NCBI GenBank assembly: GCA_039930765.1
Contig: JBDTTF010000106.1
Location: 30,373 to 94,372, forward strand
DNA from: Gemmatimonadota bacterium
GTDB taxonomy: Bacteria; Gemmatimonadota; Gemmatimonadetes; Gemmatimonadales; GWC2-71-9
DNA length: 64,000 bases
Direction: 5' to 3'
How positions within the stretch are numbered: position 1 is the stretch's first letter; every line of letters begins with the position of its first letter. Positions 4,995 through 37,362 of the stretch are shown here, piece after piece. A program made the position numbers and the translations under genes. Below the pieces are notes generated by a model. That model was given only the letters and a program-made list of their open reading frames with translations, had not been told where the DNA came from and ran no database searches.

Positions 4995-5434
4995 GCGCTG
5001 ATCTGCATGAACGGGTGTTCATCGCCCTGGGCAGCAACCTGGGTGATCGCAAGCGCCATCTTGAGACGGCGGTCGAAGCCATCGGCAAGATTCCGCTCAC
5101 CAAACTCGTGGCCACCTCAACCATCGAGGAAACCGCACCACTCGGCGGGATGGATCAGCCCAAATATCTCAACCAGATGATCGTGGCCTCGACCGGCCTC
5201 GATCCCTCGCGGTTTCTCAAGGCACTGCACAAGATCGAAGAGGCGGCCGGTCGGATCCGCACCGAACGATGGGCGCCGAGGACCCTCGATCTCGATATCG
5301 TCCGGTTCGGAACCCGTCGTCTCGACGAGGCCGATCTGACGTTGCCGCACCCGGAGCTGCCCCATCGCGACTTCTGGCTGCGGGAGCTGGAGGAATTGAA
5401 CGCCACCCTGGCCAGGAAACCGGAGTCCGCCTGA
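4991..5434 (+). CDS. folK: 2-amino-4-hydroxy-6-hydroxymethyldihydropteridine pyrophosphokinase (HPPK)
   Basis: [23 protein letters not shown] and [13 protein letters not shown] motifs at the expected size (147 aa). Confidence 0.85.
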
Positions 5435-6255: not shown

Positions 6256-7106
6256 TCCGGCTGTCCACCATCGCGGAGTTGCGGAGCTGGACGGCCGCCG
6301 CCCGCCGTGCCGAGCAGCGGATTGCACTGGTGCCGACGATGGGTGCGCTGCACGCCGGCCATCTGGCGCTGGTGGCCGAGGCCCGGCGCAGGGCGCCGCT
6401 GGTGGTGATGAGCCTGTTCGTCAATCCGCTGCAGTTCGGGCCCAGCGAGGATTTCGCGCGCTATCCTCGGCCCCTCGAGCGTGATGCCGGCCTGGCCAGC
6501 GCCAGCGGGGTCGACGCGCTGTATACGCCGACCGTTGAAATGATGTATCCGCCGGGCTCCGAGACCAGGGTCGTGCCAGGCCGTTCGGCCGAGCGCTGGG
6601 AAGGGGAAATCAGGCCAGGCCATTTTACCGGGGTGCTCACCGTGGTGGCCAAGTTCTTCAATCAGGTGCAGCCCGACGTCGCCATTTTTGGCCAGAAGGA
6701 CGTCCAGCAGCTGACCCTGATCCGGCGGATGGTGGCCGATCTGGACTGGCCGATCGAGATCGTGATGGTGCCGACGGTGCGCGAATCCGACGGTCTGGCG
6801 TTGAGCAGCCGCAACGCTTATCTGGAATCAGGGGCCCGGGTTCGGGCCACTGCCATCAGCCGGGCGCTGTTGGCCGCTTCCGAGGCCTGGGGCAGGGGAG
6901 AACAGAACCCGGAACGGCTCCGGCAATTGGTGCTCGACGGGCTGAGCGGTGCCGAGGGGCTGGAAACCCAGTATCTCGCCATTCTGGACCCCGAAACGTT
7001 GCAACCGGTTGAAATCGCCAGAGTTGGCACGATCATCGCTCTTGCCGTGCGGTCAGGAACAACCCGGTTACTTGATAATGTTATTCTGGGGTCGACTTCG
7101 GAGTGA
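6252..7106 (+). CDS. panC: pantoate--beta-alanine ligase
   Basis: LVPTMGALHAGHLALV, FVNPLQFGPSEDF and GHFTGV motifs. ATGA overlap with panB. Confidence 0.9.
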   Translation: MIRLSTIAELRSWTAAARRAEQRIALVPTMGALHAGHLALVAEARRRAPLVVMSLFVNPLQFGPSEDFARYPRPLERDAGLASASGVDALYTPTVEMMYPPGSETRVVPGRSAERWEGEIRPGHFTGVLTVVAKFFNQVQPDVAIFGQKDVQQLTLIRRMVADLDWPIEIVMVPTVRESDGLALSSRNAYLESGARVRATAISRALLAASEAWGRGEQNPERLRQLVLDGLSGAEGLETQYLAILDPETLQPVEIARVGTIIALAVRSGTTRLLDNVILGSTSE

Positions 7107-7137
7107 ACATCATATCTACCCACTACCCGGTGCGCTC

Positions 7138-7734
7138 ATGACGGCACCACGTCCTCCTCGGCATTCGTCGCCAGGATTGAGGCCTACCTTGCCGGCCTGG
7201 GCCGTCGTCAGTGACGAGCGGCTCAAGCATGTGGAGCGGGTCGCTGCCCTGGTGGCCCGATGGGCCGAGGAAATGGGCGTTCCGGATTCCGAGCGCAATC
7301 GCTGGCTCAGGGCGGTCTGGCTGCATGACGCGGTCCGTGATGCCTCGGACGACGACTTGAAACGCTGGGCTCCCTCGGCAGTCGGTCCCCTGGAGCTGCG
7401 TCACGGTGCGGCCAGCGCCGCGCTGGCCAAGACCGGGGGCGAGAGCGATCGCGGGGTGCTCGACGCTGTCCGCTATCACAGCATGGGGCTGGCCGAGTGG
7501 GACATGGTGGGCCGGGTGCTGTACTGCGCCGACTACCTGGAACCTGGTCGGGTTCACGATCGCGAGATCCGGGCAGAGCTGGCCGAGCGCTTCTCACGTG
7601 ATTCGAGCGGGGTGCTCCGCGAAGTGGCCAAGGCCCGCATGGCTCGGCTGGTCCAGTCCGGCTTTCCGATTCCCGAGCCCACCATTCGCTTCTGGAACAG
7701 CCTGTTCACCCGCCCCGCCACCGAATCGGCCTGA
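7138..7734 (+). CDS. HD-domain phosphohydrolase, YqeK-like
   Basis: HVERVAALV..WLHDAVRD..HGAASAALA..AVRYHSMG..LYCADYLEPGR matches the YqeK/HD layout. ATG 7138 is the first start downstream of panC. Confidence 0.6.
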   Translation: MTAPRPPRHSSPGLRPTLPAWAVVSDERLKHVERVAALVARWAEEMGVPDSERNRWLRAVWLHDAVRDASDDDLKRWAPSAVGPLELRHGAASAALAKTGGESDRGVLDAVRYHSMGLAEWDMVGRVLYCADYLEPGRVHDREIRAELAERFSRDSSGVLREVAKARMARLVQSGFPIPEPTIRFWNSLFTRPATESA

Positions 7735-7850
7735 CCGCAGTCGGTCGGCCGCTTTCCGGTCTACTGCTGGTTCTGGCCTGCCGATCTCCGGATCGGGGGC
7801 CAGCGCACGCCTATCCGGTCCCGTCCGCTGAAGACCGGGTCACTGTCGAA

Positions 7851-8129
7851 GTGCTCAATGGCGCCGGCATCCCGGGTTTGGCCAGGCTCGGTGCCCGGGT
7901 GCTTCGGCAGAACGGTTTCGACGTCGTGCTATTCGGCAACGGAGACACCGCCGGCGGGGCCGTCACCCGGGTTATCGCCCGACGGCCGGACAGCCGGAGC
8001 TCCGCCGATCGGGCTCGTTCGGCACTGGGAGTCGGCACGGTGGCACAGACGCTGGATACCCTGAGGCGAGTGGACGTCACCGTGATCCTCGGACGGGATT
8101 TTCATCCGGCGTTGCCGTTGCATCCGTAG
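7851..8129 (+). CDS. LytR_C (LytR/CpsA/Psr C-terminal-like) domain protein, N-terminus unresolved
   Basis: VTVEVLNGAGIPGLARLGARVLRQNGFDVV...VTVILGRDF is a typical LytR_C core. The frame stays open upstream through a hydrophobic LSGLLLVLAC stretch but has no ATG/GTG there. Confidence 0.5.
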   Translation: MLNGAGIPGLARLGARVLRQNGFDVVLFGNGDTAGGAVTRVIARRPDSRSSADRARSALGVGTVAQTLDTLRRVDVTVILGRDFHPALPLHP

Positions 8130-8135
8130 GGCGTC

Positions 8136-8149
8136 GAGCGACGAGCGAC
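8136..8149 (+). repeat. perfect tandem heptamer (GAGCGAC)x2, 7 nt after the stop at 8127-8129
   Basis: Read directly: gagcgac gagcgac. Confidence 0.9.
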
Positions 8150-8237
8150 TAGAAGCGGGGCACGAGGCTGGAGGGACGAGAAGCGGGATGGCGGACCGGG
8201 TCCTCGCCAGCCAACGAGATCGGTCATAAATTCGCTC

Positions 8238-8269
8238 GTCGTTCCGTCGTTCCGTCGTTCCGTCGTTCC
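8238..8269 (+). repeat. perfect tandem octamer (GTCGTTCC)x4
   Basis: Read directly. The repeat lies 33 nt upstream of the 8302 start codon. Confidence 0.95.
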
Positions 8270-8301
8270 AACGGCCAACCACTCGACCCGCCCGAGCGCC
8301 C

Positions 8302-8904
8302 ATGCCGAAAAAAGACCCCCGCATCGACGCCTATATCGCCAAGTCCGCGCCATTCGCCCAGCCGATTCTTCGCCATCTTCGGAGCGTCGTGCACCAGGCC
8401 TGTCCCGACGTGGAAGAGACGGTCAAATGGGGAATGCCGTCCTTCACTTACCACGGGATACTGTGCGGCATGGCGGCGTTCAAGCAGCACGCGACGTTCG
8501 GCTTCTGGAAAGCGAGCCTGATTCTCGATAAGGATGGCAACAAGGCGGAGGAGGCGCATGGGCAGTTCGGCCGGCTCACCGCGGTCAAGGATCTGCCGTC
8601 AAAGGCGGTGCTCATGGGCTACGTCAAGCAGGCGATGAAGCTGAATGACGAGGGCACCGCGATGGCCAAGCCGAGGAAAGGGCCCAAGCCGCCGGCCAGG
8701 ATTCCGGCCGACCTGGCCGCGGCGCTCAAACACAACGCCAAGGCGAACGCCGTGTTCAGGGAGTTCAGTGCCAGCGGGCAGCGGGAATACATCGAGTGGA
8801 TCGAGGAGGCCAGGACCGACGCCACCCGCCAGCGGCGGCTGGTCACGACGATTGAATGGGTGGCCGAGGGAAAACAGCGGAACTGGAAATATCAGAACTG
8901 CTGA
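8302..8904 (+). CDS. DUF1801 / YdeI-type protein
   Basis: The N-terminal PRIDAYIAKSAPFAQPILRHLR...VKWGMPSFTYHG (DUF1801/YdhG-like) and the C-terminal REYIEWIEEARTDATRQRRL (YdeI-like) both match from memory. Confidence 0.6.
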   Translation: MPKKDPRIDAYIAKSAPFAQPILRHLRSVVHQACPDVEETVKWGMPSFTYHGILCGMAAFKQHATFGFWKASLILDKDGNKAEEAHGQFGRLTAVKDLPSKAVLMGYVKQAMKLNDEGTAMAKPRKGPKPPARIPADLAAALKHNAKANAVFREFSASGQREYIEWIEEARTDATRQRRLVTTIEWVAEGKQRNWKYQNC

Positions 8905-8908
8905 GTGG

Positions 8909-10336
8909 TCAGGCGGGCTGGCTCAATCCGATCACGATATCCATCACGTTGGTGCCGGTCGGGCGGGCGGGGATGAGGGCGCCTGCGGCCTGAAGCGCTG
9001 GAAAGGCATTGTGGCCCGCGAGCTCGCGGGCCGGGTCGAGGCCGGCCGCCAGGATGGCGGTCCAGGTTGAACTGTCAACGATGGCGCCTGCCGCATCGGT
9101 GGGGCCGTCTCGTCCATCGGTACCGGCTGACAGGAAGGAAAGGCCGGTCCGGCCCGATCCCGCCAGCACTTCAGCGGCCGCCAGCGCCAGCTCCTGATTC
9201 CGGCCGCCCAGCCCCGCCAAGGGGCCCAGGGTCACCGTCGTTTCCCCACCCCATATAAGGCAGAATGTATCTTTATGCATTTCCCCCCTTCCGGGCGCAG
9301 GGGATTCTGCATAGTTTACGAGCAGGTCGGCCAGACGCCTGCCGGCTGGCGCCGCTTCTCCAGCGAGGGCGGTGTCGAGGATCCGGGCCCTGAGGCCAAG
9401 CTGGCCGGCGTGGTGGGCCGCGGCCTCAAGGGCCAGCCGGTTGCTGACCACCACCTGCACTTCAAGATGCGTGAAGGCGGGGTCGCCCGGTTTCGGAGTT
9501 TCCGGCGCCCGGCCTTCGAGTACCGCCTCCAGGGCATCCCGCACCGATGCGGGGATCAGGTCCCAGAGGTTCGCGCCAGCCAGGGCGCGGCGCACGTCGC
9601 TGGCAATCGACTCATCCGGAATGCAGGGGCCCGAACCAATGGCCGCCAGGTCGTCACCGATGACGTCGGAGATTGTGAAATTTTTCACACGCGCGGGCAT
9701 CAGCACGGTCGCCAGGCGGCCGGCGCCCCAGCGGGAAAATCGCTTGCGGATCTGGTTCATGGCGGCGATATCCAGCCCTGAGCCCAGCAGCTGATCGTAA
9801 AGCTGAATCAGGTCGTCGGCCGGGATGCCATCGATCGGCGCCGCGATCAGGCTGGTGGTGCCACCGGAGAGCAGGACCCAGACTTCGTCGTCGCCGTGGA
9901 TGCTGCGGGCCAGCTGACCGATGGCGTCCGCCGCGGCAAACGAACCGGCTCCGGGATGCGGATGGTCGCCGGCCATCGAGATCAGGGAAGGATGCGGGGG
10001 CGGATCGGCAACCGGGCTGACGACCAGGCCACCGGCTGGCGTCAGGCCCCAGCTGTGCAGCCGCTCCACCGCTTCGGCGGCCATCGGAGTGGCGGCCTTG
10101 CCGAGTGCCAGCAGGAAGACTCGACGGGTGGACTCTGGTCGGCGGACGGCCAGGGCACGTCCCAGGGCCGGGCCGGGTGCGGCCGCGGTGACGGCGGCAC
10201 GATACAGCGCTTCCAGCAGCGTCCGCCGCGAGGCGGCCGTTGGGGTTTGTGCCACGAAACGCCAGCTCCAGAGGTGAGTGCGGCCGGTAAGATGGCCGTC
10301 CACCGTGCTTCGCGCGAGAGCCCGGAGCTTTCGCAC
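8909..10336 (-). CDS. gckA: glycerate 2-kinase (MOFRL / TtuD family)
   Basis: LLALGKAATPMA, WGGETTVTL..GLGGRNQELALAAA and LSAGTDGRDGPTDAAGAIVD (MOFRL) motifs. GTG 10336 has GGAG upstream. An alternative GTG at 10255 would give a more typical N-terminus and a 110-nt divergent spacer. Confidence 0.8.
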   Translation of the reverse strand: MRKLRALARSTVDGHLTGRTHLWSWRFVAQTPTAASRRTLLEALYRAAVTAAAPGPALGRALAVRRPESTRRVFLLALGKAATPMAAEAVERLHSWGLTPAGGLVVSPVADPPPHPSLISMAGDHPHPGAGSFAAADAIGQLARSIHGDDEVWVLLSGGTTSLIAAPIDGIPADDLIQLYDQLLGSGLDIAAMNQIRKRFSRWGAGRLATVLMPARVKNFTISDVIGDDLAAIGSGPCIPDESIASDVRRALAGANLWDLIPASVRDALEAVLEGRAPETPKPGDPAFTHLEVQVVVSNRLALEAAAHHAGQLGLRARILDTALAGEAAPAGRRLADLLVNYAESPAPGRGEMHKDTFCLIWGGETTVTLGPLAGLGGRNQELALAAAEVLAGSGRTGLSFLSAGTDGRDGPTDAAGAIVDSSTWTAILAAGLDPARELAGHNAFPALQAAGALIPARPTGTNVMDIVIGLSQPA

Positions 10337-10365
10337 CCATTACTCCAGCACAAAGGACTCATCGC

Positions 10366-11619
10366 ATGCCCGGCCGCAACCATCTCTTCGTTCCCGGACC
10401 GACCAACATTCCCGACCGGATCCTGCGGGCGATGCACGTCCCGTCCGAAGATCACCGTTCGTCGAAGTTTCCCGAACTGCCGTTGCAGGTCTTCCGGGAT
10501 CTCAAGAAGATCTTCCGGACCGAGAGCGGCCAGCCGTTCGTCTTTCCCGCCACTGGCACCGGCGGCTGGGAAGCGGCGCTGGCCAACACCTGTTCCCCCG
10601 GCGACAAGCTGCTGGCCTGCCGGTACGGGCAGTTCAGTCTGCTCTGGATCGACCTGGCCCAGCGGATCGGACTTGAGGTCGAGGTGATCGACGCCGAGTG
10701 GGGCGAAGGCGCACCCATGGACAAGATCCAGGCCCGGCTGGCCGCGGACACCGGTCACACGATCAAGGGCGTGATGATCGTGCACAACGAAACGGCCACC
10801 GGTGTCACTAGCGACATCGGTGCGGTCCGCAAGGCGATGAATGCGGCCAAGCATCCGGCGCTGCTGTATGTCGACAGCGTCAGCGGGCTGGGCAGCATCG
10901 ATTTCCGGTTTGACGAGTGGGGCGTGGACCTGGCCGTGACGGGCTCACAGAAGGGGCTGCAGCTGCCGGCCGGACTGGGCATCGTCTGCGCCAGCCCCAA
11001 GGCGCTGGCCAGGCGCGAAACCGCCAGGTGCGCCAGGGTCTTCTTCGATTTCGGCGATATGATCAAGGCCAATGGCACCGGTTACTTCCCCTATACGCCG
11101 TCGATCCCGATGTTATATGGCCTGCGCGAGTCGCTGACCATCCTGCTCGAGGAGGGACTCGACAATGTCTACGCCCGGCACAACCGGCTGGCTGAAGGCA
11201 CCCGCCGTGCGGTCAGGGCGTGGGGCCTGGAGCTCTGTGCCCGTGATCCCAGGTGGCATTCTGATACCGTGAGTGCCGTCATGGTTCCGGCCGGGTTCAA
11301 CGGCGCTGACGTGATCGATGTCGCCTACCGGCGATACAACCTTGCCCTCGGCGCCGGACTCAACAAGCTGGCCGGCAAGCTGTTCCGCATCGGGCACATG
11401 GGAGACCTCAACGACCTCATGCTGGTGAGCGGCCTTGCGGGCGCCGAGATGGCCATGCGGGATGTCGGAATTCCGATCGTGCCCGGCAGCGGGGTCGCGG
11501 CCGCGACCGAGTACTGGCGCACCAGCGCCGCGGCAATTCCCGGGCGGCCGGTGGTCGCGCTGCCCGACGCCGCCGTCAGGGCGCCCGAAGGCCGGGCCGC
11601 CGCGGCTGCCGCCCGATGA
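10366..11619 (+). CDS. sga: serine--glyoxylate aminotransferase (class V aminotransferase)
   Basis: The N-terminus MPGRNHLFVPGPTNIPDRILRAMHV closely recalls methylotroph Sga. A PLP-fold class V body follows. AAAGGA lies upstream of the ATG. Confidence 0.85.
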   Translation: MPGRNHLFVPGPTNIPDRILRAMHVPSEDHRSSKFPELPLQVFRDLKKIFRTESGQPFVFPATGTGGWEAALANTCSPGDKLLACRYGQFSLLWIDLAQRIGLEVEVIDAEWGEGAPMDKIQARLAADTGHTIKGVMIVHNETATGVTSDIGAVRKAMNAAKHPALLYVDSVSGLGSIDFRFDEWGVDLAVTGSQKGLQLPAGLGIVCASPKALARRETARCARVFFDFGDMIKANGTGYFPYTPSIPMLYGLRESLTILLEEGLDNVYARHNRLAEGTRRAVRAWGLELCARDPRWHSDTVSAVMVPAGFNGADVIDVAYRRYNLALGAGLNKLAGKLFRIGHMGDLNDLMLVSGLAGAEMAMRDVGIPIVPGSGVAAATEYWRTSAAAIPGRPVVALPDAAVRAPEGRAAAAAAR

Positions 11620-12563
11620 GTCACGCCCGCTACGAACCGGCGCGGGTCCGGCTGCAGCGCAGTGAGCTTGCGGTGCCCGGCACCAATCCCGGGATGTTTG
11701 TCAAGGCGCTGGAGGGGCCCGCCGACTACGTGTTCCTCGATCTGGAGGACGCGGTGGCGCCGGCCGACAAGGAGCAGGCCCGGATCAACGTGATCAAGGG
11801 GCTGCTCGAGCATGACTGGCAGGCCAGCGGCAAGACGATCTGCGTTCGGGTCAACGGGATCGATACGCACTACTTCTATCGCGACATGGTCGACGTCATC
11901 GAACAGGCCGGCCACCGGCTCGATGTCGTCCTGGTGCCGAAGGTCGGCACCCCGTCCGATGTCTATCTCACCGACGCGCTGCTGACCCAGATCGAAGCCG
12001 CCAAGGGCATCACCAATCGGATCGGCATCGATGTCCTGATCGAGACGGCCCTCGGGATGGCCAACGTGGAAGCCATTGCCCAGTCGAGCCGGCGCCTCGA
12101 GGCCATGCATTTCGGCGTGGCTGACTACGCCGCCAGCCTCCGGGCCCGCACCGTCAATATCGGGGGGCTCAATCCGGATTATCCTGGCGACCAGTGGCAC
12201 GCCGGACTGTGTCGAATGATCGTGGCGTGTCGGGCCTATGGCCTGCGGCCGATCGACGGACCATTTGGCGATTTCAAGGATCCGGATGGCTACCGGGCGG
12301 CCGCCCGGCGCGGGGCCGCCCTCGGTATTGAAGGGAAGTGGGCCATTCACCCGACCCAGATCGAACTGGCCAATGAAGTGTTCACGCCGCCGCCAGTCGA
12401 GGTGGACAAGGCACGGCGCATTCTGATCGCGCTGGAAGAAGCGGCCAAGGCCGGCAAGGGCGCCGCCCAGCTCGATGGCCGGATGATCGACGCGGCCTCG
12501 GCGCGGATGGCGGAGAATGTGGTGAATTTGGCGCGGGTGATTGCGGAGAAGTCGCGAGTCTAG
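11616..12563 (+). CDS. mcl: L-malyl-CoA / beta-methylmalyl-CoA lyase (HpcH/CitE fold)
   Basis: [60 protein letters not shown] and [10 protein letters not shown] are near-collinear with M. extorquens MclA as I recall it. ATGA overlap with sga. Confidence 0.85.
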
Positions 12564-12583
12564 AGTCGGGAGTCGGGAGTCCA
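12556..12583 (+). repeat. tandem heptamer (GAGTCNN)x4 spanning the mcl stop codon, including perfect (AGTCGGG)x2
   Basis: Read directly: gagtcta gagtcgg gagtcgg gagtcca. The TAG stop is at 12561-12563. Confidence 0.85.
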
Positions 12584-12645
12584 TTCCGGGCGGACCCTCG
12601 ACTGTGGACTCTCGACCGTCTCGAAGCCCAAAGGAGTTGCGGACT

Positions 12646-13818
12646 GTGGACATCCACGAATACCAGGCCAAGGAAATGCTCAGCGGGTTCGGCGTCGCGG
12701 TACCGCGCGGCGGGGTGGCGTACAGCCCCGAGCAGGCGGTCTACCGCGCGGCCGAGATCGGCGGCAGCAAGTGGGCGGTCAAGGCGCAGATTCACTCCGG
12801 CGCCCGCGGCAAGGCGGGTGGGATCAAGATCTGCGGTTCCGAGGATGAAGTCCGCAACGCCGCCAAGGAACTGCTGGGCAAGCGGCTGGTGACTCACCAG
12901 ACCGGCCCCGAAGGCCGGGTGGTCCATCGGCTGTATATCGAGGGCGCAGTCCAAATTGAGCGAGAGCTCTACCTCGGCTTTGTCCTCGACCGGAAGAGCC
13001 AGCGGATCATGGTGGTGGCGGCTCGTGAGGGCGGCATGGAAATCGAGGAGATCGCCCGCGAAAAGCCCCAGAGCATTCTGCGCGAGGTGATCGAACCGGC
13101 GGTCGGGATGCAGGCGTTCCAGGCCCGCGAGCTGGCGTTTGGCCTGGGGCTGACCGCCAAGCAGATCAGTGGTGCCGTCTCCACCATGCTGGGTGCCTAT
13201 CGCGCCTTTCGCGAGCTCGATGCCACCATGGTCGAGATCAATCCGCTGGTGCTGACCGGGGATGGACGGGTGCTGGCACTCGACGCCAAGATGACCTTCG
13301 ATGACAACGCGATGTTCCGCCGGCCCAATGTGGCCGAACTGCGCGACTACGCCGAAGAGGACCCCCGTGAGGCCCAGGCCGCCGAGCATGGGCTCAACTA
13401 CGTCGCACTGGACGGCCAGATCGGCTGCATCATCAACGGCGCCGGTCTGGCAATGGCCACGATGGACATGATCAAGCATGCCGGTGGCGAGCCGGCCAAT
13501 TTCCTCGATGTCGGTGGTGGCGCGTCCCCGGAGCGGGTGGCCGCGGCCTTCCGGCTGGTGCTCAGCGACAAGAATGTCGGCGCCATCCTGGTCAACATCT
13601 TTGCCGGAATCAACCGCTGCGACTGGGTGGCCACCGGCGTGGTGCAGGCCGTCAAGGAAGTCGGGCTCAAGGTGCCGCTGGTGGTGCGGCTGGCCGGCAC
13701 CAACGAGGCCGAGGGCCAGCAGATCATCGCCGACAGCGGGCTGCCGATCATCGGCGCCGACTCGCTGGCGGAAGCGGCGGACAAGGTAGTGGCGGCGTAC
13801 AAGAGTGCCAAGAATTGA
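12646..13818 (+). CDS. mtkA: malate--CoA ligase (malate thiokinase) beta subunit
   Basis: GTG 12646 lies 9 nt after [16 protein letters not shown].. ATP-grasp N-terminus at about 390 aa. [17 protein letters not shown] matches the MtkA-type loop rather than the SucC-type NIFGGIVRCD. Sits between mcl and hprA. Confidence 0.8.
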
Positions 13819-13824
13819 CGGATC

Positions 13825-13840
13825 GCCGGATTGCCGGATT
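13825..13840 (+). repeat. perfect tandem octamer (GCCGGATT)x2, 7 nt after the mtkA stop
   Basis: Read directly. The second copy can pair with CCAATCC at 13874-13880. Confidence 0.9.
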
Positions 13841-13920
13841 GGGTGGCGCGATCAGCCTTCGCTCGCAAACCAGCCAATCCATCAATCTATCCATGCGTCC
13901 ATCCAACTCCTGAGGTTCGC

Positions 13921-14832
13921 ATGAGCGTGCTGATCGACGAAACGACCAAGGTCATCGTCCAGGGCTTCACCGGCGACAAGGCGACTTTCCACGCCAGGGA
14001 GATGATCGCCTACGGCACCCAGGTGGTCGGCGGGGTCACGCCGGGCAAGGGCGGCACTCGGCATCTGGATCTGCCGGTGTTCAACACCGTCAAGGAAGCG
14101 GTACGAGACACCGGGGCTGAAGCGAGCATCGTCTTCGTCCCGGCACCGTTCTGTGCCGATGCCATCATGGAGGCGGCGGACGCCGGTCTCCGGCTGGTCT
14201 GCTGCATCACCGACGGGATGCCGGCCCAGGACATGATGATGGTGAAGCGCTACCTGCTCCGGTATCCGAAGGACAAGCGGACCACGCTGGTGGGTCCCAA
14301 CTGCGCCGGAATCATCAGCGCCGGCAAAGCCATGCTGGGGATCATGCCCGGGCACATCTACTCGAGGGGCACCGTCGGGGTCGTCACCCGGTCGGGGACG
14401 CTGGGCTATGAAGCCGCCGCCCAGATGAACGCGCTCGGCATCGGTCAGACCACCAGCGTCGGCATCGGTGGAGACCCGGTGAACGGCTGTTCGTTCATGG
14501 ACACGCTGGCCCTGTTCGAGGCTGATCCGGAAACCGAGGCGGTGATGCTGATCGGCGAAATCGGCGGACCGCAGGAAGCCGAGGCCGCGATGTTCGTCAA
14601 GGAACACATGAAGAAGCCGGTGGTCGGCTACGTCGCCGGGCTGACGGCGCCCAAAGGCCGCCGGATGGGACACGCGGGGGCCATCATCTCCGCGTTCGGC
14701 GACAGCGCAGCCGAAAAGGCCGAGATCATGCGCTCCGCCGGATTGACCGTGGCCGTCAGCCCTGCCGAGCTGGGCAGGGCCATTGCGCAGGCGCTGGCGT
14801 CCGGTTCCAAGCGGGTCATGGTGGCCCAGTGA
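13921..14832 (+). CDS. mtkB: malate--CoA ligase alpha subunit
   Basis: ATG 13921 after GAGG. CoA-binding N-terminus [35 protein letters not shown] and phosphohistidine loop MGHAGAII. Called Mtk rather than SucD from context. Confidence 0.75.
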
Positions 14833-15803
14833 GCAGCCGACCCCGGGTCGTCGTCACCCGCACGCTGCCGGCCGCGGTCGAGGCCGAGTTACAGAAGGAT
14901 TTTGACGCAGTCCTGAATGTCGATGACAAGCCGTTCGATGCCGATGGACTGAAAGCGGCGCTGCAGGACGCCGATGGGCTGCTGCCCACCGTGACCGACA
15001 AGCTGACGGCCGACGTATTGGGCGTGGCCGGACGCCAGGCGCGGATCGTGGCCAACTTCGGCGTGGGTTTCAATCACATCGACACCGCTGCGGCCAAGGC
15101 GGCCGGCCTGACGGTCAGCAACACCCCTGATGTCCTCACCGATGACACCGCGGACATCGCGATGACGCTGCTGCTGATGGTGGCGCGCCGGGCCGGCGAG
15201 GGGGAGCGCTACGTCCGCAGTGGACAGTGGACCGGCTGGCGGCCGACCCAGATGCTGGGCACCAAGGTCAGCGGCAAGACCCTGGGGTTGATCGGCATGG
15301 GTCGGATTGCCAGGGCGGTGGCCCGGCGGGCCCACCATGGTTTCGGCATGCGGGTCATCTTCCAGGATCCGTATCCTCCCAAGCCGGAGGAGGCCCGCGC
15401 CCTGGGCGCCGAGCCGAGAGACACGATCGATCAGGTCCTGGCCGAGGCGGATTTCGTCTCGCTGCACTGTCCGGCTACTCCCGAGACCCGGCATCTCATG
15501 AATGCCGCCCGGCTGGGCCGGATGCGGCGCACCGCATTCCTGATCAATACCGCCCGGGGAGATGTGGTGGATGAGGCGGCGCTGGCTGCCGCGCTGCAGG
15601 CCGGCACGATTGCCGGGGCGGGACTCGACGTGTTCGAGAAGGAGCCCGCGGTGACGCCGGCGCTGCTCACGATGGACCAGGTTGTCCTGTTTCCCCACCT
15701 CGGCAGCGCCACCACTGACACCCGGATCGCGATGGGGATGCGGGCGCTCGAGAATCTCTGCCTGTTCTTTGCCGGCAAGCCGGTGCGTGACCGGGTAGTG
15801 TGA
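14829..15803 (+). CDS. hprA: hydroxypyruvate/glyoxylate reductase (D-2-hydroxyacid dehydrogenase)
   Basis: NAD-binding GLIGMGRIARAVARRA and the catalytic region NTARGDVVDE...FPHLGSAT. GTGA overlaps at both ends. Confidence 0.75.
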   Translation: MSSRPRVVVTRTLPAAVEAELQKDFDAVLNVDDKPFDADGLKAALQDADGLLPTVTDKLTADVLGVAGRQARIVANFGVGFNHIDTAAAKAAGLTVSNTPDVLTDDTADIAMTLLLMVARRAGEGERYVRSGQWTGWRPTQMLGTKVSGKTLGLIGMGRIARAVARRAHHGFGMRVIFQDPYPPKPEEARALGAEPRDTIDQVLAEADFVSLHCPATPETRHLMNAARLGRMRRTAFLINTARGDVVDEAALAAALQAGTIAGAGLDVFEKEPAVTPALLTMDQVVLFPHLGSATTDTRIAMGMRALENLCLFFAGKPVRDRVV

Positions 15804-18544
15804 CGCCGGACGCCCAGCACCCGTTCGCCGCCGAACAGCTTCCCGCCTCCACCGACCCGCTGGCCGCGAGTGCCGCGGCCTACGCCTCGGAAGTCGCCGA
15901 GCTGCTGTTCAACATCCTGCTCGACGTGGTGCGGGCCAGCGAGCCTGCCATTGTCCCGATCCTGGCTGGCCAGCCACTCCCTCCGAACACACCTACCGGT
16001 ACGCTTGAAGCCCTGCTGAGGGCCCAGGGCATCTGGTTCCAGCTGCTCTCGATTGCCGAGCAGAATGCGGCGATGCGCCGGCGGCGCCAGGTCGAGAGTG
16101 TCCGCGGCCTGGAAACGGTTCGCGGCACCTTTGCCCAGGTCTTTCACGACGCGGTGCGTGACGGGATTCCACTCAGTGAAGTGCGCGCACTACTGGGCCG
16201 CCTGCAGGTCAGGCCCACCCTCACCGCCCACCCCACCGAAGCCAAGCGGGTCACGGTGCTCGAGCGCCACCGACGGATCTACCGCCGGCTGGTGGACCTC
16301 GAGTCGCCGCGCTGGACGCCCCGCGAACGGGCCGGCCTGAATGATCAGCTGCACAACGAAATCGAACTGCTCTGGCTGACCGGCGAGCTGCGGCTCGAGC
16401 GCCCCACCGTGCCGCAGGAGGTCTACTGGGGCATTCACTTCTTCAATGAGACGCTGTTCGAGGCGGTGCCCGAACTGCTCGAAAAGGCCGAGCGGGCGCT
16501 GCAGCAGGCGTGGCCCGGCGAGTCGTTCACGCTGAGCCCGTTCTTCCAGTTCGGTTCATGGATCGGTGGCGACCGGGACGGCAATCCATTCGTGACCACC
16601 GAAGTCACCCGCCTGACCCTGCTCGAGAACCGCCGGGCCAGCCTGGAACGGTACCGCAGCCGGCTGACCGACCTGACCCGGTCGCTGAGCATCACCGATC
16701 GGGCCTCGCGCACCAGCGATGAGTTCCGCCTGGCCCTGACCGCGGCGCTGACCGCCACCGGCGAAGGGGAACAGATCGCGGCCCGCAATCCGGGCGAGAT
16801 CTATCGGCAATTCCTGGCTTGCATGCTCCGGCGGCTTGAACTCACCCTGCAGCCGTCGGCGGGCGGCTACAGCCGCCCCGAGGATCTGATCGGCGACCTG
16901 TCGCTGATGGAACGGGCTCTCGAGTCTGGCGGGGCCGAGCGGATTGCCCATTCGCTGGTGCGGCCGGTGCGTCGCGAGGTCGAGAGCTTCCGGTTCAGCA
17001 CGGTGCGGCTCGACGTCCGGCAGAACAGCGACTGGCTCAACAGCGCGCTCGGGGTGCTCTGGCGGCTGCGAAAAAACAGCGAGCCACCGGCCGCTGACAG
17101 CGATGCCTGGCGCGAGTGGCTGCTGGCCGAACTGGCCCGGCCCTGGGCCGGTGAATTTCCGCGCAGCGCGCTCGGCCCCGAGCTCGGGGAAGCCCGCGAC
17201 CTGTTCGATTTGATCCGCGAAACCCGCGATCGGGCTGACCGCGACGCCTTTGGCTGCTTCATCCTCAGTATGACCCGCCGGGCCAGCGACCTGCTCGGCG
17301 TCTACCTGCTGGCCAAGCAGGCCGGACTGTTTGCCGATGGGGAGCGGGTCGAGGTCTGCACCCTGCCGGTGGTACCCCTGCTCGAAACCATCGACGACCT
17401 GCAGCGCGCGCCGGCGATACTTCGTGAACTGCTCGGCGTGCCGCTGGTCCGCCGGAGCGTGCGGGACCAGGGCGGTGTGCTCGAGGTCATGATCGGCTAC
17501 TCCGATTCCAACAAGGACGGCGGGTTCCTGACCTCGAACTGGGAACTCTCCAAGGCGCAGACCCGGCTCACCAGGCTTGGGCAGGAGCTGGGGATTCCGA
17601 TTTCCTTTTTCCATGGCCGGGGTGGTTCGGTCAGCCGTGGCGGAGCGCCGACCGGGCGGGCCATTGCGGCGCAACCGGCCGGGTCGATCAACGGCAGATT
17701 GCGACTCACGGAGCAGGGTGAGGTTGTTTCCTACAAGTACGCCAACCGCGGCACGGCCGCGTACCAGACCGAACTGCTGGCGGCCAGCGTGGTGGAGCAC
17801 GCGCTCCGTTCTGAACGGGAAGAGGCGCTGACCCCGCGCGGTGAATACGACGAAGCGCTGGAGGCGTTGAGCGGCGCGGCCCAGGCCGCGTATCGCCAGC
17901 TCATCGAGCACCCTCGGCTGGTCGAATACTTCCAGGAGTCGAGCCCGCTCGAGGAGCTGGCCCTGCTCAATATCGGCAGCCGCCCGGCTCGGCGCACCGG
18001 GCTCAAGGCGCTGTCGGACCTCCGGGCCATTCCCTGGGTCTTTGCCTGGTCCCAGAACCGGCATTTCATCACCGGCTGGTATGGCGTCGGCAGCGGGCTG
18101 GAGGCATTCCTGCAGATCAGGGGCGAGCGCGGCGAGAAACTGCTGAAGCGGATGTTTGCCGATTCCAGGCTGTTCAAGCTGGTGATCGACGAAACCGAGA
18201 AGACGATGACCTACGTTGATCTCAAGGTGGCCAGGGAGTTTGCCGGGCTGGTCTCCGATCACGCGGCGCGAGACGATATCTACGGGATGATCGAGTCCGA
18301 GTACCGGCGCACCATGGCCATGACGCTGCGGATTTCTGGCGATTCGGAAATTGCAGGACGGTTTCCCAGATTCCGCCGCCGGCTGGCCCGGCGGCTGCCG
18401 GCACTCAATCAAGTCAGCCTGCAGCAGGTTGAACTGCTGCGCCGGTTCCGCGCCGCCCAGAGCGATGAGGCGCGGCAGGAAGGGTTGTCAGCGCTGCTGC
18501 TGTCGATCAATTGTATTGCCAGTGGATTTGGAAGTACGGGATAA
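15800..18544 (+). CDS. ppc: phosphoenolpyruvate carboxylase
   Basis: TAHPTE, MIGYSDSNKDGGFLTSNWE and FHGRGGSVSRGGAP motifs, ending in the typical ...GSTG tail. 914 aa. Confidence 0.95.
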   Translation: MTPDAQHPFAAEQLPASTDPLAASAAAYASEVAELLFNILLDVVRASEPAIVPILAGQPLPPNTPTGTLEALLRAQGIWFQLLSIAEQNAAMRRRRQVESVRGLETVRGTFAQVFHDAVRDGIPLSEVRALLGRLQVRPTLTAHPTEAKRVTVLERHRRIYRRLVDLESPRWTPRERAGLNDQLHNEIELLWLTGELRLERPTVPQEVYWGIHFFNETLFEAVPELLEKAERALQQAWPGESFTLSPFFQFGSWIGGDRDGNPFVTTEVTRLTLLENRRASLERYRSRLTDLTRSLSITDRASRTSDEFRLALTAALTATGEGEQIAARNPGEIYRQFLACMLRRLELTLQPSAGGYSRPEDLIGDLSLMERALESGGAERIAHSLVRPVRREVESFRFSTVRLDVRQNSDWLNSALGVLWRLRKNSEPPAADSDAWREWLLAELARPWAGEFPRSALGPELGEARDLFDLIRETRDRADRDAFGCFILSMTRRASDLLGVYLLAKQAGLFADGERVEVCTLPVVPLLETIDDLQRAPAILRELLGVPLVRRSVRDQGGVLEVMIGYSDSNKDGGFLTSNWELSKAQTRLTRLGQELGIPISFFHGRGGSVSRGGAPTGRAIAAQPAGSINGRLRLTEQGEVVSYKYANRGTAAYQTELLAASVVEHALRSEREEALTPRGEYDEALEALSGAAQAAYRQLIEHPRLVEYFQESSPLEELALLNIGSRPARRTGLKALSDLRAIPWVFAWSQNRHFITGWYGVGSGLEAFLQIRGERGEKLLKRMFADSRLFKLVIDETEKTMTYVDLKVAREFAGLVSDHAARDDIYGMIESEYRRTMAMTLRISGDSEIAGRFPRFRRRLARRLPALNQVSLQQVELLRRFRAAQSDEARQEGLSALLLSINCIASGFGSTG

Positions 18545-18547
18545 AAC

Positions 18548-18583
18548 GCGAAAGGCGAAAAGCGGAAGGCGAACGGGAAGGCG
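18548..18583 (+). repeat. T-free purine-rich tandem heptamers (GCGRAAR)n, 4 nt after the ppc stop
   Basis: Read directly: gcgaaag gcgaaaa gcggaag gcgaacgggaag gcg. Confidence 0.8.
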
Positions 18584-18588
18584 TATCC

Positions 18589-18602
18589 CGCTCACCGCTC
18601 AC
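18589..18602 (+). repeat. perfect tandem heptamer (CGCTCAC)x2
   Basis: Read directly in the ppc/rlmN convergent spacer. Confidence 0.9.
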
Positions 18603-18607
18603 CCCGA

Positions 18608-19672
18608 TCAGGTCTTGGAGAGTGAATCAGTCTCCGTCCTGAGTTGTCCGCATGCCGCACTGATATCCAGGCCCCGGCTCCGCCGGACTACCGCCTCGAC
18701 TCCCTGATTCTGCAACCGCGCGGCGAATTTCCGGATCCGATCGGGCGCGGTCGGCGTCAGCCCGGGCGCGCCGCCGGGATGGAGCGGCAGCAGGTTGACC
18801 AGTGCACCTGAACGATGGGCCAGCTTGGCCAGTGCATCGGCGTCCTGGTCGCTGTCGTTCTTGCCGGCGATCAGCACGTATTCGAAGGTGATCCGCTTGG
18901 CGAACGCCGTGGAGGCCTTCAGCACCTCATCCAATCCATACTTTTTCTGTATTGGCATGATCGACTGGCGCCGAGCCGGTGTGGCGGCGTGCAGTGAGAT
19001 GGCCAGCCGGAACTGTTCGGGGCGCTTGGCCAGCTGCTCCATGCCGGGCAGGATTCCCACCGTGGAGACCGTAATGTGCCGGGCGCCGATGCCGAGGGCG
19101 TCCGGGTGGTTGAGCAGCGTCAAGGCGCCATCGACACCGGGCCAGTTGAGCAGCGGCTCGCCCATGCCCATGAACACCACGTTGGTCGGCGCCAGGTCCG
19201 GATACCGCAGCACGATTTCCCGGGCCTGCCCGGCAATCTCGAACACGGAGAGATTGCGCCGGTAACCCATCCGCCCGGTGGCGCAGAAGACGCAACCCAG
19301 GGCGCAGCCGGCCTGCGACGAAATGCAAAGGGTCCGGCGTCCGCCACTCGGGATCAGGACCGACTCGATCAACTCGCCGTCGGCCAGCCGCCACAGAAAT
19401 TTCCGGGTACCGTCGCTCGAGAGTTGCTCCGTGGCGAGTTCGAGGCGCGGCAGCGGCAGCTCCCGGTCGAGGGTGGCTCGGAGTGCGGCCGGCAGGTCGG
19501 TGGCGTCCGCCCAGCGTGCGACCGGTCGCCCCCAAAGTCTGGGGAAGAGCTGCCGGGCCCGATAAGCGGGGAGGCCAGCCGATTCGACCAGCGCGGCCAG
19601 GCGTTGGCGGGCCGCATCGGGTACCAGGTCGAGGATGGTGGCCGGACTGTCGGCCGGGGAGCGCTGACTCAT
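18608..19672 (-). CDS. rlmN: 23S rRNA/tRNA (adenine-C2)-methyltransferase, radical SAM
   Basis: CISSQAGCALGCVFCATG radical-SAM cluster motif, GMGEPLLN and a C-terminal catalytic Cys region. Confidence 0.9.
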   Translation of the reverse strand: MSQRSPADSPATILDLVPDAARQRLAALVESAGLPAYRARQLFPRLWGRPVARWADATDLPAALRATLDRELPLPRLELATEQLSSDGTRKFLWRLADGELIESVLIPSGGRRTLCISSQAGCALGCVFCATGRMGYRRNLSVFEIAGQAREIVLRYPDLAPTNVVFMGMGEPLLNWPGVDGALTLLNHPDALGIGARHITVSTVGILPGMEQLAKRPEQFRLAISLHAATPARRQSIMPIQKKYGLDEVLKASTAFAKRITFEYVLIAGKNDSDQDADALAKLAHRSGALVNLLPLHPGGAPGLTPTAPDRIRKFAARLQNQGVEAVVRRSRGLDISAACGQLRTETDSLSKT

Positions 19673-19783
19673 GGTGCCAAGATAACGCAGCTTGCAGAAA
19701 ACGACCTAACCCTGTGCGGCATCGTTGCTTGCTGCGCTGGTGGCCCGCCGTTAGTTTATCTCCATCCTGACCCCTCATCCCAA

Positions 19784-20236
19784 GTGCTGCTGACTGAACT
19801 CCTGCCGGCCGACCGGATCCGACTCCCGCTTCAGGCCACCGACAAAACTGGCGTGCTCAAGGAACTGGTCGATTTTCTGGCCGAGCGTTCCGGCGGCAAC
19901 GCGACTGAAATCCTGGCCGCGGTCCGTGAGCGCGAAGCGGTGCTGAGTACCGGTATCGGTTTCGGCATTGCCATCCCCCACGCCAAAGCCCCTTCGGTGG
20001 CCACCCTGGGCCTGGTCGCGGGAGTCTCGAAACTTCCGATTTCGTTCGACGCCATCGATGGTGAACCAGTCCGGCTGTTCTTCCTGCTGGTTGGCCCCGA
20101 GGCCGCCGCGGGGCTGCACGTCAAGGCACTGAGCCGGATAGCCCGCGTCGTCCGGCGCGAGCAGGTCCGCGAGGCGCTGCTGGCTGCTGCCACGGCCGAG
20201 GCGTTCGTCAAGATTATTGCCACGGCCGAAGACTGA
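19784..20236 (+). CDS. ptsN: PTS EIIA (type 2, nitrogen-regulatory PtsN-like)
   Basis: LSTGIGFGIAIPHAK active-site His region with the VRLFFLLVGPE layout. GTG 19784 is the first start outside rlmN. The rest of ORF 19076.. is antisense to rlmN. Confidence 0.7.
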   Translation: MLLTELLPADRIRLPLQATDKTGVLKELVDFLAERSGGNATEILAAVREREAVLSTGIGFGIAIPHAKAPSVATLGLVAGVSKLPISFDAIDGEPVRLFFLLVGPEAAAGLHVKALSRIARVVRREQVREALLAAATAEAFVKIIATAED

Positions 20237-20243
20237 GCCGCCG

Positions 20244-22022
20244 ATGACCGCCACCGCACTCCGGACTCATCGCTGCGGCAGCCTGTCGCGCGCCGAGGTG
20301 GGCCAGACCGTACGGCTCGGCGGCTGGGTGCACCGGACCCGTGACCTTGGCGGTGTCGTCTTCATCGACCTGCGCGATCTGGATGGCCTGGTGCAGCTCT
20401 CGCTCAATCCACGCTGGACTCCACCGGAGGTGCTGGCACTCGGCGCGTCGGTCGGGCTGGAGTCGGTGGTCCTGGTGACCGGGCAGGTCGCCATGCGCCC
20501 CGAATCGGCCCGGGAGAGTTCGCTGGCCACCCGCGAGATCGAAGTGCAGGTGACGGGACTCGAGGTGGTCGGTCCCGCCGTCACCCCGGCGATTCCGGTC
20601 GGACGGAAAGAAGGGGAAGAGCTGCCGGCCGAAGAGCTCCGGCTCAAGCACCGGGTGCTCGATCTCCGCCGGCCTGAGCTGCAGCGCAACCTGATCCTCC
20701 GGCACCGGCTGATGCAGCGGGCCAGGCGGACCCTCACCGAGCTCGATTTCCTCGAGATCGAAACCCCGATTCTCACCAAGCCAACACCCGAAGGTGCCCG
20801 CGATTACCTGGTGCCGAGCCGGGTACATCCGGGTGAGTTCTACGCCTTGCCGCAATCGCCGCAGATCTACAAGCAGCTGCTGATGGTGGCGGGCTTCGAT
20901 CGGTATTTCCAGATTGCCCGCTGCTTCCGGGACGAGGACCTGCGGGCCGACCGCCAGCCCGAGTTTACCCAGATCGACGTCGAGGCCTCGTTCATTTCGG
21001 CCGACGATGTGATGGCGGTGATCGAGCGGGTGTTGATCGATCTCTGGACCCAGGAAGGACACCTGGTGCCGTCGCCCTTTCCACGATTGTCATGGCGCGA
21101 GGCCATGGAGCGGTTCGGCATCGACAAGCCCGATCTCCGCTATGGCCTCGAAATCCAGGACCTGACCATGCTGGCAGGCCCCGACGCGGCGCCATTCGTC
21201 CACGAAGCCATTTCAGCTGGCGGCCGGCTGCGCGGAATTGTGATGGAGGGCGGAGCCGCGCTGTCACGCAAGGAGCTTGACAGTCTCGCCGCCCTGGCCA
21301 GGAGTGCCAAAGCCGGCGGCCTGATCTGGGCCAAGCGCACCTCGACAGGATGGGAAGGGCAGGGCGTCAAGGCGGCGGGCCAGACCATGCTTGACCAGAT
21401 CACCGCCCGGGAAGGCACGCTGCTGCTTGCCGTCGTCGGTGCGGACGCGGTCACTTCATCGGCGCTCCACTCCATTCGCTCGACCCTGATCCGACGGCCG
21501 GGAATCACACCGTTCTCCGATCACGCCTTCTGCTGGGTGGTGGACTTTCCGCTGTTCGAGCAGGACGCCGCAACAGGTCAGTTCGTCCCGGCCCACCATC
21601 CGTTCACTGCTCCGCACCCGGCGGACGCGGGCCGGCTCGACAGCCATCCCGGCGAATGCCGAGCCCAGCATTACGATGCAGTGTACAACGGCAACGAGCT
21701 GGGTAGCGGCTCGATCCGGATCACCACGCCAGAGCTCCAGCGCAAGATTTTCGACCTGCTCGGCATTCCGGACGCGGAAATCCGCCGCCGATTCGGATTC
21801 CTGCTCGACGGGCTGGCCGCGGGGGCGCCGCCCCATGGTGGTTTTGCACTCGGAGTCGACCGGATCGCGATGCTGCTGGCCGGTGCCACCAGTTTGCGCG
21901 ACGTGATCGCCTTTCCCAAGACCACCACGGCGCGAGCGCTGTTCGAGGGCGCGCCGACGGAGGTAAAGGAGGCGGACTTGCGCGCGTTGCACCTTGCCGT
22001 GACCCGTGATGCGGGATCCTGA
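20244..22022 (+). CDS. aspS: aspartate--tRNA ligase
   Basis: OB-fold N-terminus GWVHRTRDLGGVVFIDLRD. Class II motifs FRDEDLRADRQPEFTQID and GGFALGVDRIAMLL. Confidence 0.95.
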   Translation: MTATALRTHRCGSLSRAEVGQTVRLGGWVHRTRDLGGVVFIDLRDLDGLVQLSLNPRWTPPEVLALGASVGLESVVLVTGQVAMRPESARESSLATREIEVQVTGLEVVGPAVTPAIPVGRKEGEELPAEELRLKHRVLDLRRPELQRNLILRHRLMQRARRTLTELDFLEIETPILTKPTPEGARDYLVPSRVHPGEFYALPQSPQIYKQLLMVAGFDRYFQIARCFRDEDLRADRQPEFTQIDVEASFISADDVMAVIERVLIDLWTQEGHLVPSPFPRLSWREAMERFGIDKPDLRYGLEIQDLTMLAGPDAAPFVHEAISAGGRLRGIVMEGGAALSRKELDSLAALARSAKAGGLIWAKRTSTGWEGQGVKAAGQTMLDQITAREGTLLLAVVGADAVTSSALHSIRSTLIRRPGITPFSDHAFCWVVDFPLFEQDAATGQFVPAHHPFTAPHPADAGRLDSHPGECRAQHYDAVYNGNELGSGSIRITTPELQRKIFDLLGIPDAEIRRRFGFLLDGLAAGAPPHGGFALGVDRIAMLLAGATSLRDVIAFPKTTTARALFEGAPTEVKEADLRALHLAVTRDAGS

Positions 22023-35089: not shown

Positions 35090-35101
35090 CCCCTCCAGGT
35101 C

Positions 35102-37355: not shown

Positions 37356-37362
37356 GCCATCC

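Follow-up and report, generated by a model that had tools for sequence, protein, structure and literature searches.

A serine-cycle gene cluster in a Gemmatimonadales genome: architecture, conservation and two chromosomal sites

Described clusters and layout of the locus

Alphaproteobacterial serine-cycle clusters were sorted into five types in 2026, with the order sga-mcl-mtkAB-hpr(-ppc) among them (PMC13199381). In Aminobacter, the operon sga-mcl-mtkBA-hpr-gck is induced by methylamines via SecR (PMC13199381). The QscR-regulated cluster of Methylobacterium extorquens (sga-hprA-mtdA-fch-mtkA-mtkB-ppc-mcl) is 'type V' of the same scheme (PMC13199381). Six of the genes treated here are clustered in that organism together with mtdA and fch, only glyA, gck and ftfL lying elsewhere, and its mutational definition of serine-cycle genes counts glyA in (PMC2680597). 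Here a locus of the same kind from a Gemmatimonadota bacterium is described, in which minus-strand gck faces plus-strand sga-mcl-mtkA-mtkB-hprA-ppc. It occupies positions 8909-18544 of a 64,000-nucleotide stretch (the window) of contig JBDTTF010000106.1, assembly GCA_039930765.1 (positions 30,373 to 94,372, forward strand). The operon probably runs the serine cycle for one-carbon (C1) assimilation in an uncultured soil bacterium of the Gemmatimonadales.

Within the phylum, soil Gemmatimonadetes metagenome-assembled genomes (MAGs) were reported to encode XoxF, the tetrahydromethanopterin (H4MPT) pathway, a route from tetrahydrofolate (H4F) to serine and the canonical malate-intermediated serine pathway, and XoxF was the most abundant protein of that soil proteome (Butterfield et al., 2016; PMC5103831). 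In weathered granite, most XoxF-containing MAGs were described as also having the whole serine pathway (PMC10875860), and the pattern of serine pathway plus XoxF was repeated in a later study (PMC6784897). A Gemmatimonadales MAG was recovered from 13C-methanol-enriched soil (PMC10994693). The window shares phylum, habitat type and serine pathway with the soil MAGs of the first three papers, which list the pathway as present; operon order, overlaps and chromosomal position are described here from the window. The first-pass annotation, made by a model from the letters of the window, had offered the pathway as not textbook for such a host, which does not stand as a novelty given the reports since 2016 (PMC5103831, PMC10875860). 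Pathway, gene order and occurrence in the phylum are all published already, and no new kind of system is described. New here are the grouping of the Gemmatimonadales cassettes in one clade and their placement at two chromosomal sites in different lineages.

The sizeable open reading frames (ORFs) of the window, as selected by a codon-position GC filter, were all searched with Pfam or NCBIfam models. The ORF listing and the scans place the seven ORFs on the strands given above, and all seven contain the domains expected of the seven serine-cycle genes. The features of the locus are as follows.

8909-10255, minus strand: gck, glycerate 2-kinase family protein (DUF4147 and MOFRL), 448 aa, divergent from the operon
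10256-10365, no strand: gck-sga divergent intergenic region, 110 bp, read from the sequence
10366-11619, plus strand: sga, serine-glyoxylate aminotransferase, class V, 417 aa
11616-12563, plus strand: mcl, malyl-CoA lyase (HpcH/CitE fold), 315 aa, start overlapping the sga stop (ATGA)
12564-12645, plus strand: mcl-mtkA spacer, 82 nt; a long imperfect hairpin lies at the mcl stop, and mtkA is preceded by the ribosome-binding site AAAGGAG
12646-13818, plus strand: mtkA, malate--CoA ligase (malate thiokinase) beta subunit, 390 aa
13819-13920, plus strand: mtkA-mtkB spacer, 102 nt, with a hairpin
13921-14832, plus strand: mtkB, malate--CoA ligase alpha subunit, 303 aa
14829-15803, plus strand: hprA, D-2-hydroxyacid dehydrogenase of the glyoxylate/hydroxypyruvate reductase type, 324 aa, start overlapping the mtkB stop (GTGA)
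15800-18544, plus strand: ppc, phosphoenolpyruvate carboxylase, 914 aa, start overlapping the hprA stop (GTGA)

Three genes were too long in the ORF listing, which takes the first start (gck to 10336, mtkA from 12541 and mtkB from 13831). Their starts were corrected using the starts of the domain matches, the AAAGGAG upstream of the GTG codon at 12646, and the genes called on a 99.8% identical public contig (L081), from which the gck start at 10255 was taken. With these starts, 82 nt separate mcl from mtkA and 102 nt separate mtkA from mtkB. At the other three junctions stop and start codons share four nucleotides, read from the sequence as ATGA for sga/mcl (11616-11619), GTGA for mtkB/hprA (14829-14832) and GTGA for hprA/ppc (15800-15803). 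These overlaps, like the six plus-strand genes opposite a divergent gck, are as the first-pass annotation had given them. The three junctions are translationally coupled by their 4-nt overlaps, which recur in nearly all Gemmatimonadales loci, and in one (L015) all five junctions overlap. Because the six-gene order is found in 15 Gemmatimonadales and 12 gammaproteobacterial MAG loci and the overlaps recur, the arrangement goes beyond chance. The overlaps, the conserved order and a terminator signal no higher than background suggest that the operon is cotranscribed. Convergent to ppc, 63 bp downstream, lies rlmN.

The 110-bp gck-sga region presumably holds the promoters for gck and for sga-ppc. 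When 8000-20300 was scanned for promoters and intrinsic terminators, no sigma-70 consensus promoter appeared, and terminator-like sites numbered 7 against 6.8 expected from shuffles. The only Rfam match at gathering level in the window is a tRNA, with no riboswitch or known RNA in the gck-sga region or the spacers; at E<=1 the sole match in 8000-19000 is isrG, at chance level (16.7 bits; gathering score 100). The genes upstream of sga are gck and those for a DUF1801/OmdA protein, a LytR_C protein and an HD protein. None of the scanned window ORFs encodes a SecR, LuxR/GerE-type or receiver-domain protein, and no such gene adjoins sga; nor was a LysR-type regulator found near the cassette.

Predicted folding energies were -41.3 kcal/mol (z -1.55) for the mcl-mtkA spacer (12556-12650) and -40.4 kcal/mol (z -2.42) for the mtkA-mtkB spacer (13812-13925). 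The mcl-mtkA spacers of relatives share no sequence and range from about 0 to 136 nt, often with a strong hairpin at the same place. The mcl-mtkA hairpin was rejected as a conserved regulatory element on account of this unrelated sequence and varying length, and because sequence is not conserved among relatives the spacer hairpins were treated as ordinary hairpins between cistrons. The stretches 12564-12645, 13819-13920 and 18545-18607 are built of short stuttered repeats (e.g. GAGTCGGGAGTCGGGAGTC, CCGGATTGCCGGATTGG, GGCGAAAAGCGGAAGGCGAACGGGAAGGCG), and the first two of these fold into long hairpins. At the same intergenic places the sequence of relatives is unrelated, though often again hairpin-forming or a simple repeat (CGACTTTCGACTTTCGACC in L003, for instance).

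The M. extorquens-type cluster and that of the window are both single chromosomal clusters, with protein identities of 62% (Sga), 71% (MtkA), 72-76% (MtkB), 59-60% (Ppc) and 62-63% (Mcl), and the Ppc proteins of the window and of Methylorubrum are of the same divergent type, under the NCBIfam cutoff. They differ in gene order and in mtdA and fch, which the M. extorquens cluster contains and the window does not; gck adjoins the cassette in the window but lies elsewhere in M. extorquens. The statement that the M. extorquens genes are spread over several clusters, against which the unit seen here had been called compact, was overstated, since six of them are clustered with mtdA and fch (PMC2680597); in Methylorubrum rhodesianum (L027), sga-hprA-mtdA-fch-mtkA-mtkB-ppc-mcl fall within one 11-kb stretch. 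The Aminobacter-type operon agrees with the window in the order sga-mcl-mtk-hpr(-ppc) and in HprA type (56-61% identity). In some clusters of this type gck is linked at the operon end, whereas in the window it is divergent and upstream; secR adjoins sga in the former and is not found in the window, the host belongs to another phylum, and the junctions of the window are tighter, with three 4-nt overlaps. Shorter versions of the order were found in Aminobacter, Mesorhizobium, Chthonobacter, Hyphomicrobium and Roseovarius.

The identical six-gene order was found in 12 gammaproteobacterial MAG loci (L012, L014, L021, L023, L042, L047, L050, L051, L055, L059, L066 and L070), which encode the closest proteins to those of the window outside the Gemmatimonadales (MtkA 68-77%, Mcl 65-75%, HprA 58-68% identity). 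Spacers, not overlaps, make up most of their junctions. In the concatenated tree described below they form clades separate from the Gemmatimonadales, and their GC content is lower than that of the window (51-55% in L012 and L014, the two loci measured). In five of them (L042, L050, L055, L059 and L070) ppc is directly followed by a homologue of mtdA (47-50% identity to the Methylorubrum protein), which ties this version of the cluster to H4F-linked C1 transfer. As a catalogued alphaproteobacterial type (PMC13199381) that also occurs in gammaproteobacterial MAGs, the compact unit is no novelty. The arrangement is not unusual, and the Gemmatimonadales version is set apart by its tightness.

Identity of the encoded enzymes

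There is very little doubt that the enzymes are what they are called. Among solved structures, Sga is closest to the serine-glyoxylate aminotransferase 6PK1 (507 bits, where AGXT-type enzymes reach no more than 159), and the protein is 61.6% identical to Methylorubrum Sga over 393 aa. Mcl scores 405 bits to 5UGR (malyl-CoA/beta-methylmalyl-CoA lyase) and 308 to the malyl-CoA lyase 4L9Y, against at most 123 bits for CitE-type proteins, and is 62.9% identical to Methylorubrum Mcl; it is no generic CitE. In NCBIfam, Mcl matches the CitE and RipC models only, both below cutoff. On NF010647 (malate--CoA ligase subunit beta; cutoff 604) MtkA reaches 701.9 bits and the Methylorubrum MtkA control 771.7; on the SucC model MtkA scores 549.8. 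In a 383-column alignment the MtkA of the window shares 70.8% identity with Methylorubrum MtkA and 50-53% with three SucC proteins of solved structure. Even the least similar pair among 52 MtkA sequences (59.8% identity) is closer than the most similar MtkA-SucC pair (55.6%), and the 52 separate from the three SucC sequences with a bootstrap of 76. Comparisons of MtkA with SucC and of Mcl with CitE had been proposed at first pass as refuting checks, and both bear out the first-pass reading; by score, identity and tree MtkA is no SucC.

MtkB is 72-76% identical to the products of mtkB in Methylobacterium and Methylorubrum clusters. The only relevant NCBIfam model is that of SucD (cutoff 336), on which MtkB of the window scores 437 bits and genuine Methylorubrum MtkB 435. 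The predicted identity of the alpha subunit as MtkB rests on its identity to Methylobacterium MtkB and on the adjacency of its gene to mtkA. For Sga, the best NCBIfam model is BhcA (599 bits, below the cutoff of 650), with Methylorubrum Sga at 551 as control. The BhcA model for telling Sga from BhcA, and the SucD model for telling MtkB from SucD, were rejected as non-discriminating on the evidence of these controls; because the genuine Methylorubrum proteins score alike, the contrary-looking results are gaps in the model library. The beta-hydroxyaspartate cycle (BhcABCD) was likewise rejected for this locus, given the sub-cutoff BhcA score and mcl and mtkAB as neighbours; no bhcB-, bhcC- or bhcD-type dehydratase, aldolase or iminosuccinate reductase genes were found near sga.

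HprA contains the Pfam domains 2-Hacid_dh and 2-Hacid_dh_C. Its best solved structures are glyoxylate reductases (244-248 bits), with the D-glycerate dehydrogenase 1GDH at 229.7 bits. It is 56-68% identical to the product of the same-position gene in gamma-type and Aminobacter clusters, but only 31-36% to Methylobacterium HprA, and its NCBIfam best-hit profile is unlike that of Methylorubrum HprA and resembles those of glyoxylate reductase and GhrB. HprA belongs to another 2-hydroxyacid dehydrogenase subfamily than the M. extorquens enzyme and is no orthologue of it. The first pass had described Mcl, MtkA and Sga as near-collinear with the methylotroph enzymes; HprA is not collinear with its M. 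extorquens counterpart. Gck matches Pfam DUF4147 (192.9 bits) and MOFRL (115.1 bits), and scores 157-161 bits on the NCBIfam glycerate 2-kinase models, far under their cutoffs of 550-670. It is 52-60% identical to the product of the same-position gene in Gemmatimonadales loci and 34-39% to Gck of proteobacterial serine-cycle clusters, and it is assigned at family level as a putative glycerate 2-kinase. Ppc matches Pfam PEPcase (764 bits over residues 70-914) and scores 750 bits on NCBIfam PRK00009, below the cutoff of 815, as does the serine-cycle Ppc of Methylorubrum (771); identity to Ppc of Methylobacterium clusters is 59-60%. Overall the gene identities proposed at first pass hold in the domain scans, the solved structures and the Methylorubrum comparisons.

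Host, conservation and chromosomal position

Species-representative genomes were scanned with MtkA, yielding 80 loci. The best 11 matches and four more are from MAGs labelled Gemmatimonadales, Gemmatimonadaceae or Gemmatimonadota, which come from independent projects (73-82% identity; one on a 1.45-Mb contig). The order sga-mcl-mtkA-mtkB-hprA-ppc is present in these 15 Gemmatimonadales species-representative MAG loci wherever the contig is long enough. Flanks are syntenic in the Gemmatimonadales loci, with trpA-MCP-panB-panC-HD upstream and rlmN(-)-aspS-phoH downstream, and GC content is uniform over the 64 kb of the window (63-68%). The exact Sga protein is encoded on contig JBDUDY010000190.1 of NCBI MAG GCA_040002715.1 (10,649 bp; the L081 contig used for the gene starts), which aligns to window positions 7064-17720 at 99.80% identity with 13 mismatches and one 8-bp gap. 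This short contig already represents the same population in public databases. An exact-protein look-up of Mcl gave no match. The host belongs to the Gemmatimonadales, and the cassette is native to the lineage, not mis-binned. The initial guess of a Gemmatimonadota-like host was right, as the MtkA matches, the syntenic flanks and the 99.8% identical MAG contig attest.

A neighbour-joining tree was built from concatenated Sga, Mcl, MtkA and MtkB of 52 loci (1,363 columns) with midpoint rooting only, so that the position of the root is uncertain. The 12 Gemmatimonadales cassettes in it form one clade (bootstrap 86), with poorly resolved inner branching. A single clade fits one old presence in Gemmatimonadales better than repeated recent imports. 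An ancient transfer between phyla may have taken place.

The cassette is found at two different chromosomal sites across Gemmatimonadales lineages. In type a, comprising the window and most loci, it lies between gck(-) and rlmN(-). In type b (L010:2645-3883, L011:6472-16999 and L015:7828-20979) it lies between genes for a RecQ-like helicase and an acyl-CoA dehydrogenase, gck is not adjacent, and in L015 a gene for RNase E/G follows. The window orthologues of the type-b flanking genes lie 27 kb downstream.

42865-44289: recQ, 51-53% identical to the type-b flank gene
45597-46814: acd, 67-73% identical to the type-b flank gene
47986-49743: RNase E/G gene, 74% identical to the type-b flank gene

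Between recQ and acd, where type b has the cassette, the window has a PQQ-type glucose/sorbosone dehydrogenase gene (44249-45493, minus strand). Since the same six genes occupy two sites, the cassette has moved as a block within the order, and its link to gck is not universal.

C1 supply and the role of the operon

The reactions assigned to the cassette enzymes are established knowledge for their families. Sga would transfer the amino group of serine to glyoxylate, yielding hydroxypyruvate and glycine, HprA would reduce hydroxypyruvate to D-glycerate, and Gck would phosphorylate glycerate to 2-phosphoglycerate. Enolase, encoded elsewhere, would give phosphoenolpyruvate (PEP), which Ppc would carboxylate with CO2 to oxaloacetate. 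Malate dehydrogenase, also encoded elsewhere, would form malate; MtkAB would convert malate to malyl-CoA, and Mcl would cleave this to acetyl-CoA and glyoxylate, closing the cycle. With GlyA and methylene-H4F, neither of them encoded in the window, each turn of the cycle would fix one C1 unit and one CO2. The likeliest C1 source would be methanol via lanthanide-dependent XoxF, by analogy with related soil Gemmatimonadetes for which there is proteome support.

Several points weigh against an assignment to C1 assimilation. The Pfam and NCBIfam ORF scans found in the window no xoxF or mxaF, no methylamine dehydrogenase genes (mau/gma) and no H4MPT or GSH genes for formaldehyde handling, nor any glyA, mtdA/fch/folD or ftfL, and tblastn with Methylorubrum MtdA and Fch gave no match in the window. 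These results bear out what the first-pass annotation had said of methanol and methylamine dehydrogenases, C1-transfer genes and glyA; the only pterin-related genes are housekeeping folK (HPPK; 4991-5434) and panB. In the 10-kb flanks of all Gemmatimonadales loci, glyA and H4F-linked supply genes were likewise not found. No diagnostic gene of glyoxylate regeneration (ccr, ecm or aceA) was found in the window. The predicted substrate specificities of HprA and Gck are read from family membership only. Methylobacterium nonmethylotrophicum 6HR-1 (L063) carries a full sga-hprA-mtdA-fch-mtkA-mtkB-ppc-mcl cluster. The name of that species records that it does not grow on C1 compounds. As it has the full cluster, serine-cycle genes alone are no proof of methylotrophy. 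No cultured, experimentally proven Gemmatimonadota methylotroph was found in the literature searched. A proposed Gemmatimonadota methanotroph, 'Ca. M. kingii', was disputed in a 2026 preprint and judged to be probably no methanotroph, partly as its MAG lacks sga and hprA (bioRxiv 10.64898/2026.02.02.703227). That the window encodes every enzyme specific to the serine cycle was also too strong a statement, since the M. extorquens definition includes glyA (PMC2680597). The link of the operon to C1 oxidation, above all the other steps a matter of inference, is the weak point.

As the first-pass annotation had suggested, the same enzymes could instead have a C2 or formate role outside methylotrophy, with no module for oxidising methanol or methylamine, for example by taking glyoxylate or glycolate to glycerate via Sga, HprA and Gck, by turning malate-derived glyoxylate into glycine, or with formate entering via H4F. 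We regard this as unlikely. It accords with a 64-kb window free of C1-oxidation and C1-transfer genes, with an HprA of the glyoxylate/hydroxypyruvate reductase type, and with the occurrence of the cluster in Mesorhizobium, Roseovarius and M. nonmethylotrophicum, which are not known as methanol users. Glycolate or glyoxylate assimilation does not need Ppc, MtkAB or Mcl, yet the six genes are kept as a block in at least 15 Gemmatimonadales species; moreover, related Gemmatimonadetes MAGs are described with XoxF, H4MPT and H4F modules (PMC5103831), and the equivalent Aminobacter operon answers to methylamines (PMC13199381). A narrower, still less probable possibility joins two propositions: that the cassette stands alone, without methanol or methylamine oxidation, and converts formate- or glycine/glyoxylate-derived carbon and CO2 to acetyl-CoA, and that it is an old lineage-specific block which has moved between two sites.

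Proteobacterial origin of the DNA, by very recent horizontal acquisition or through a mis-assembled or mis-binned contig, is highly improbable. The pathway is classically proteobacterial, and Gammaproteobacteria and Alphaproteobacteria have the same order with 65-77% protein identity; against this, the cassette lies within 64 kb of uniform GC, its flanks are syntenic with those of independent Gemmatimonadales MAGs, the 12 Gemmatimonadales cassettes form one clade, and the 4-nt overlaps are a mark of the Gemmatimonadales lineage where gammaproteobacterial versions mostly have spacers. Least credible of all is that SucCD, a CitE-like lyase and an AGXT-like aminotransferase, as generic paralogues, gave rise to the serine-cycle reading as an annotation artefact. 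NCBIfam does name the alpha subunit SucD at a score above cutoff, ranks BhcA best for the aminotransferase and offers the lyase CitE and RipC models only, sub-cutoff, but genuine Methylorubrum MtkB, Sga and Mcl show the same pattern, MtkA is above its specific cutoff, Mcl and Sga match malyl-CoA lyase and serine-glyoxylate aminotransferase structures three to four times better than CitE and AGXT, and no bhcBCD genes lie nearby. Assimilation of C1 units through the serine cycle remains the favoured role of the operon.

The window also contains genes that are non-diagnostic for glyoxylate regeneration: MeaB, a split methylmalonyl-CoA mutase, a carboxyltransferase, a crotonase, a thiolase and a 405-aa acyl-CoA dehydrogenase. 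The last is a generic family member (best NCBIfam score 434.6 bits against a cutoff of 640). An ethylmalonyl-CoA pathway drawn from these genes was rejected, as they are non-diagnostic and neither ccr nor ecm was found. In the split mutase locus (32226-39009) the order is MeaB, a protein with the mutase N-terminal domain, a baeRF family 10 protein, a HAD hydrolase, a B12-binding domain protein and the carboxyltransferase; the wedging of baeRF (bacterial archaeo-eukaryotic release factor) and HAD genes between two mutase subunits is odd. Directly upstream of panB-panC lies folK (4991-7106 for the three genes), about 5 kb from the operon, in a housekeeping arrangement; the first-pass statement that H4F genes are missing applies to those of C1 transfer only. 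Elsewhere, an inorganic pyrophosphatase ORF (60604-61356, minus strand) overlaps a tRNA gene (61305-61387, plus strand, 56.5 bits); its NCBIfam match begins at residue 53, and translation probably starts further downstream.

Gemmatimonadota are abundant in soils, where methanol from plant polymers is a large carbon flux, and whether they truly assimilate C1 compounds bears on models of soil carbon turnover. If a stand-alone cassette and an old block moved between two sites were both true, the serine cycle of soil Gemmatimonadota would be a means of mixotrophic carbon salvage and not a marker of methylotrophy. The window provides a clean, complete and well-delimited assimilation operon in the phylum, which is useful while argument continues over the Gemmatimonadota methanotroph MAG. 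In practice the operon can serve as a marker and supply genes for complementation tests.

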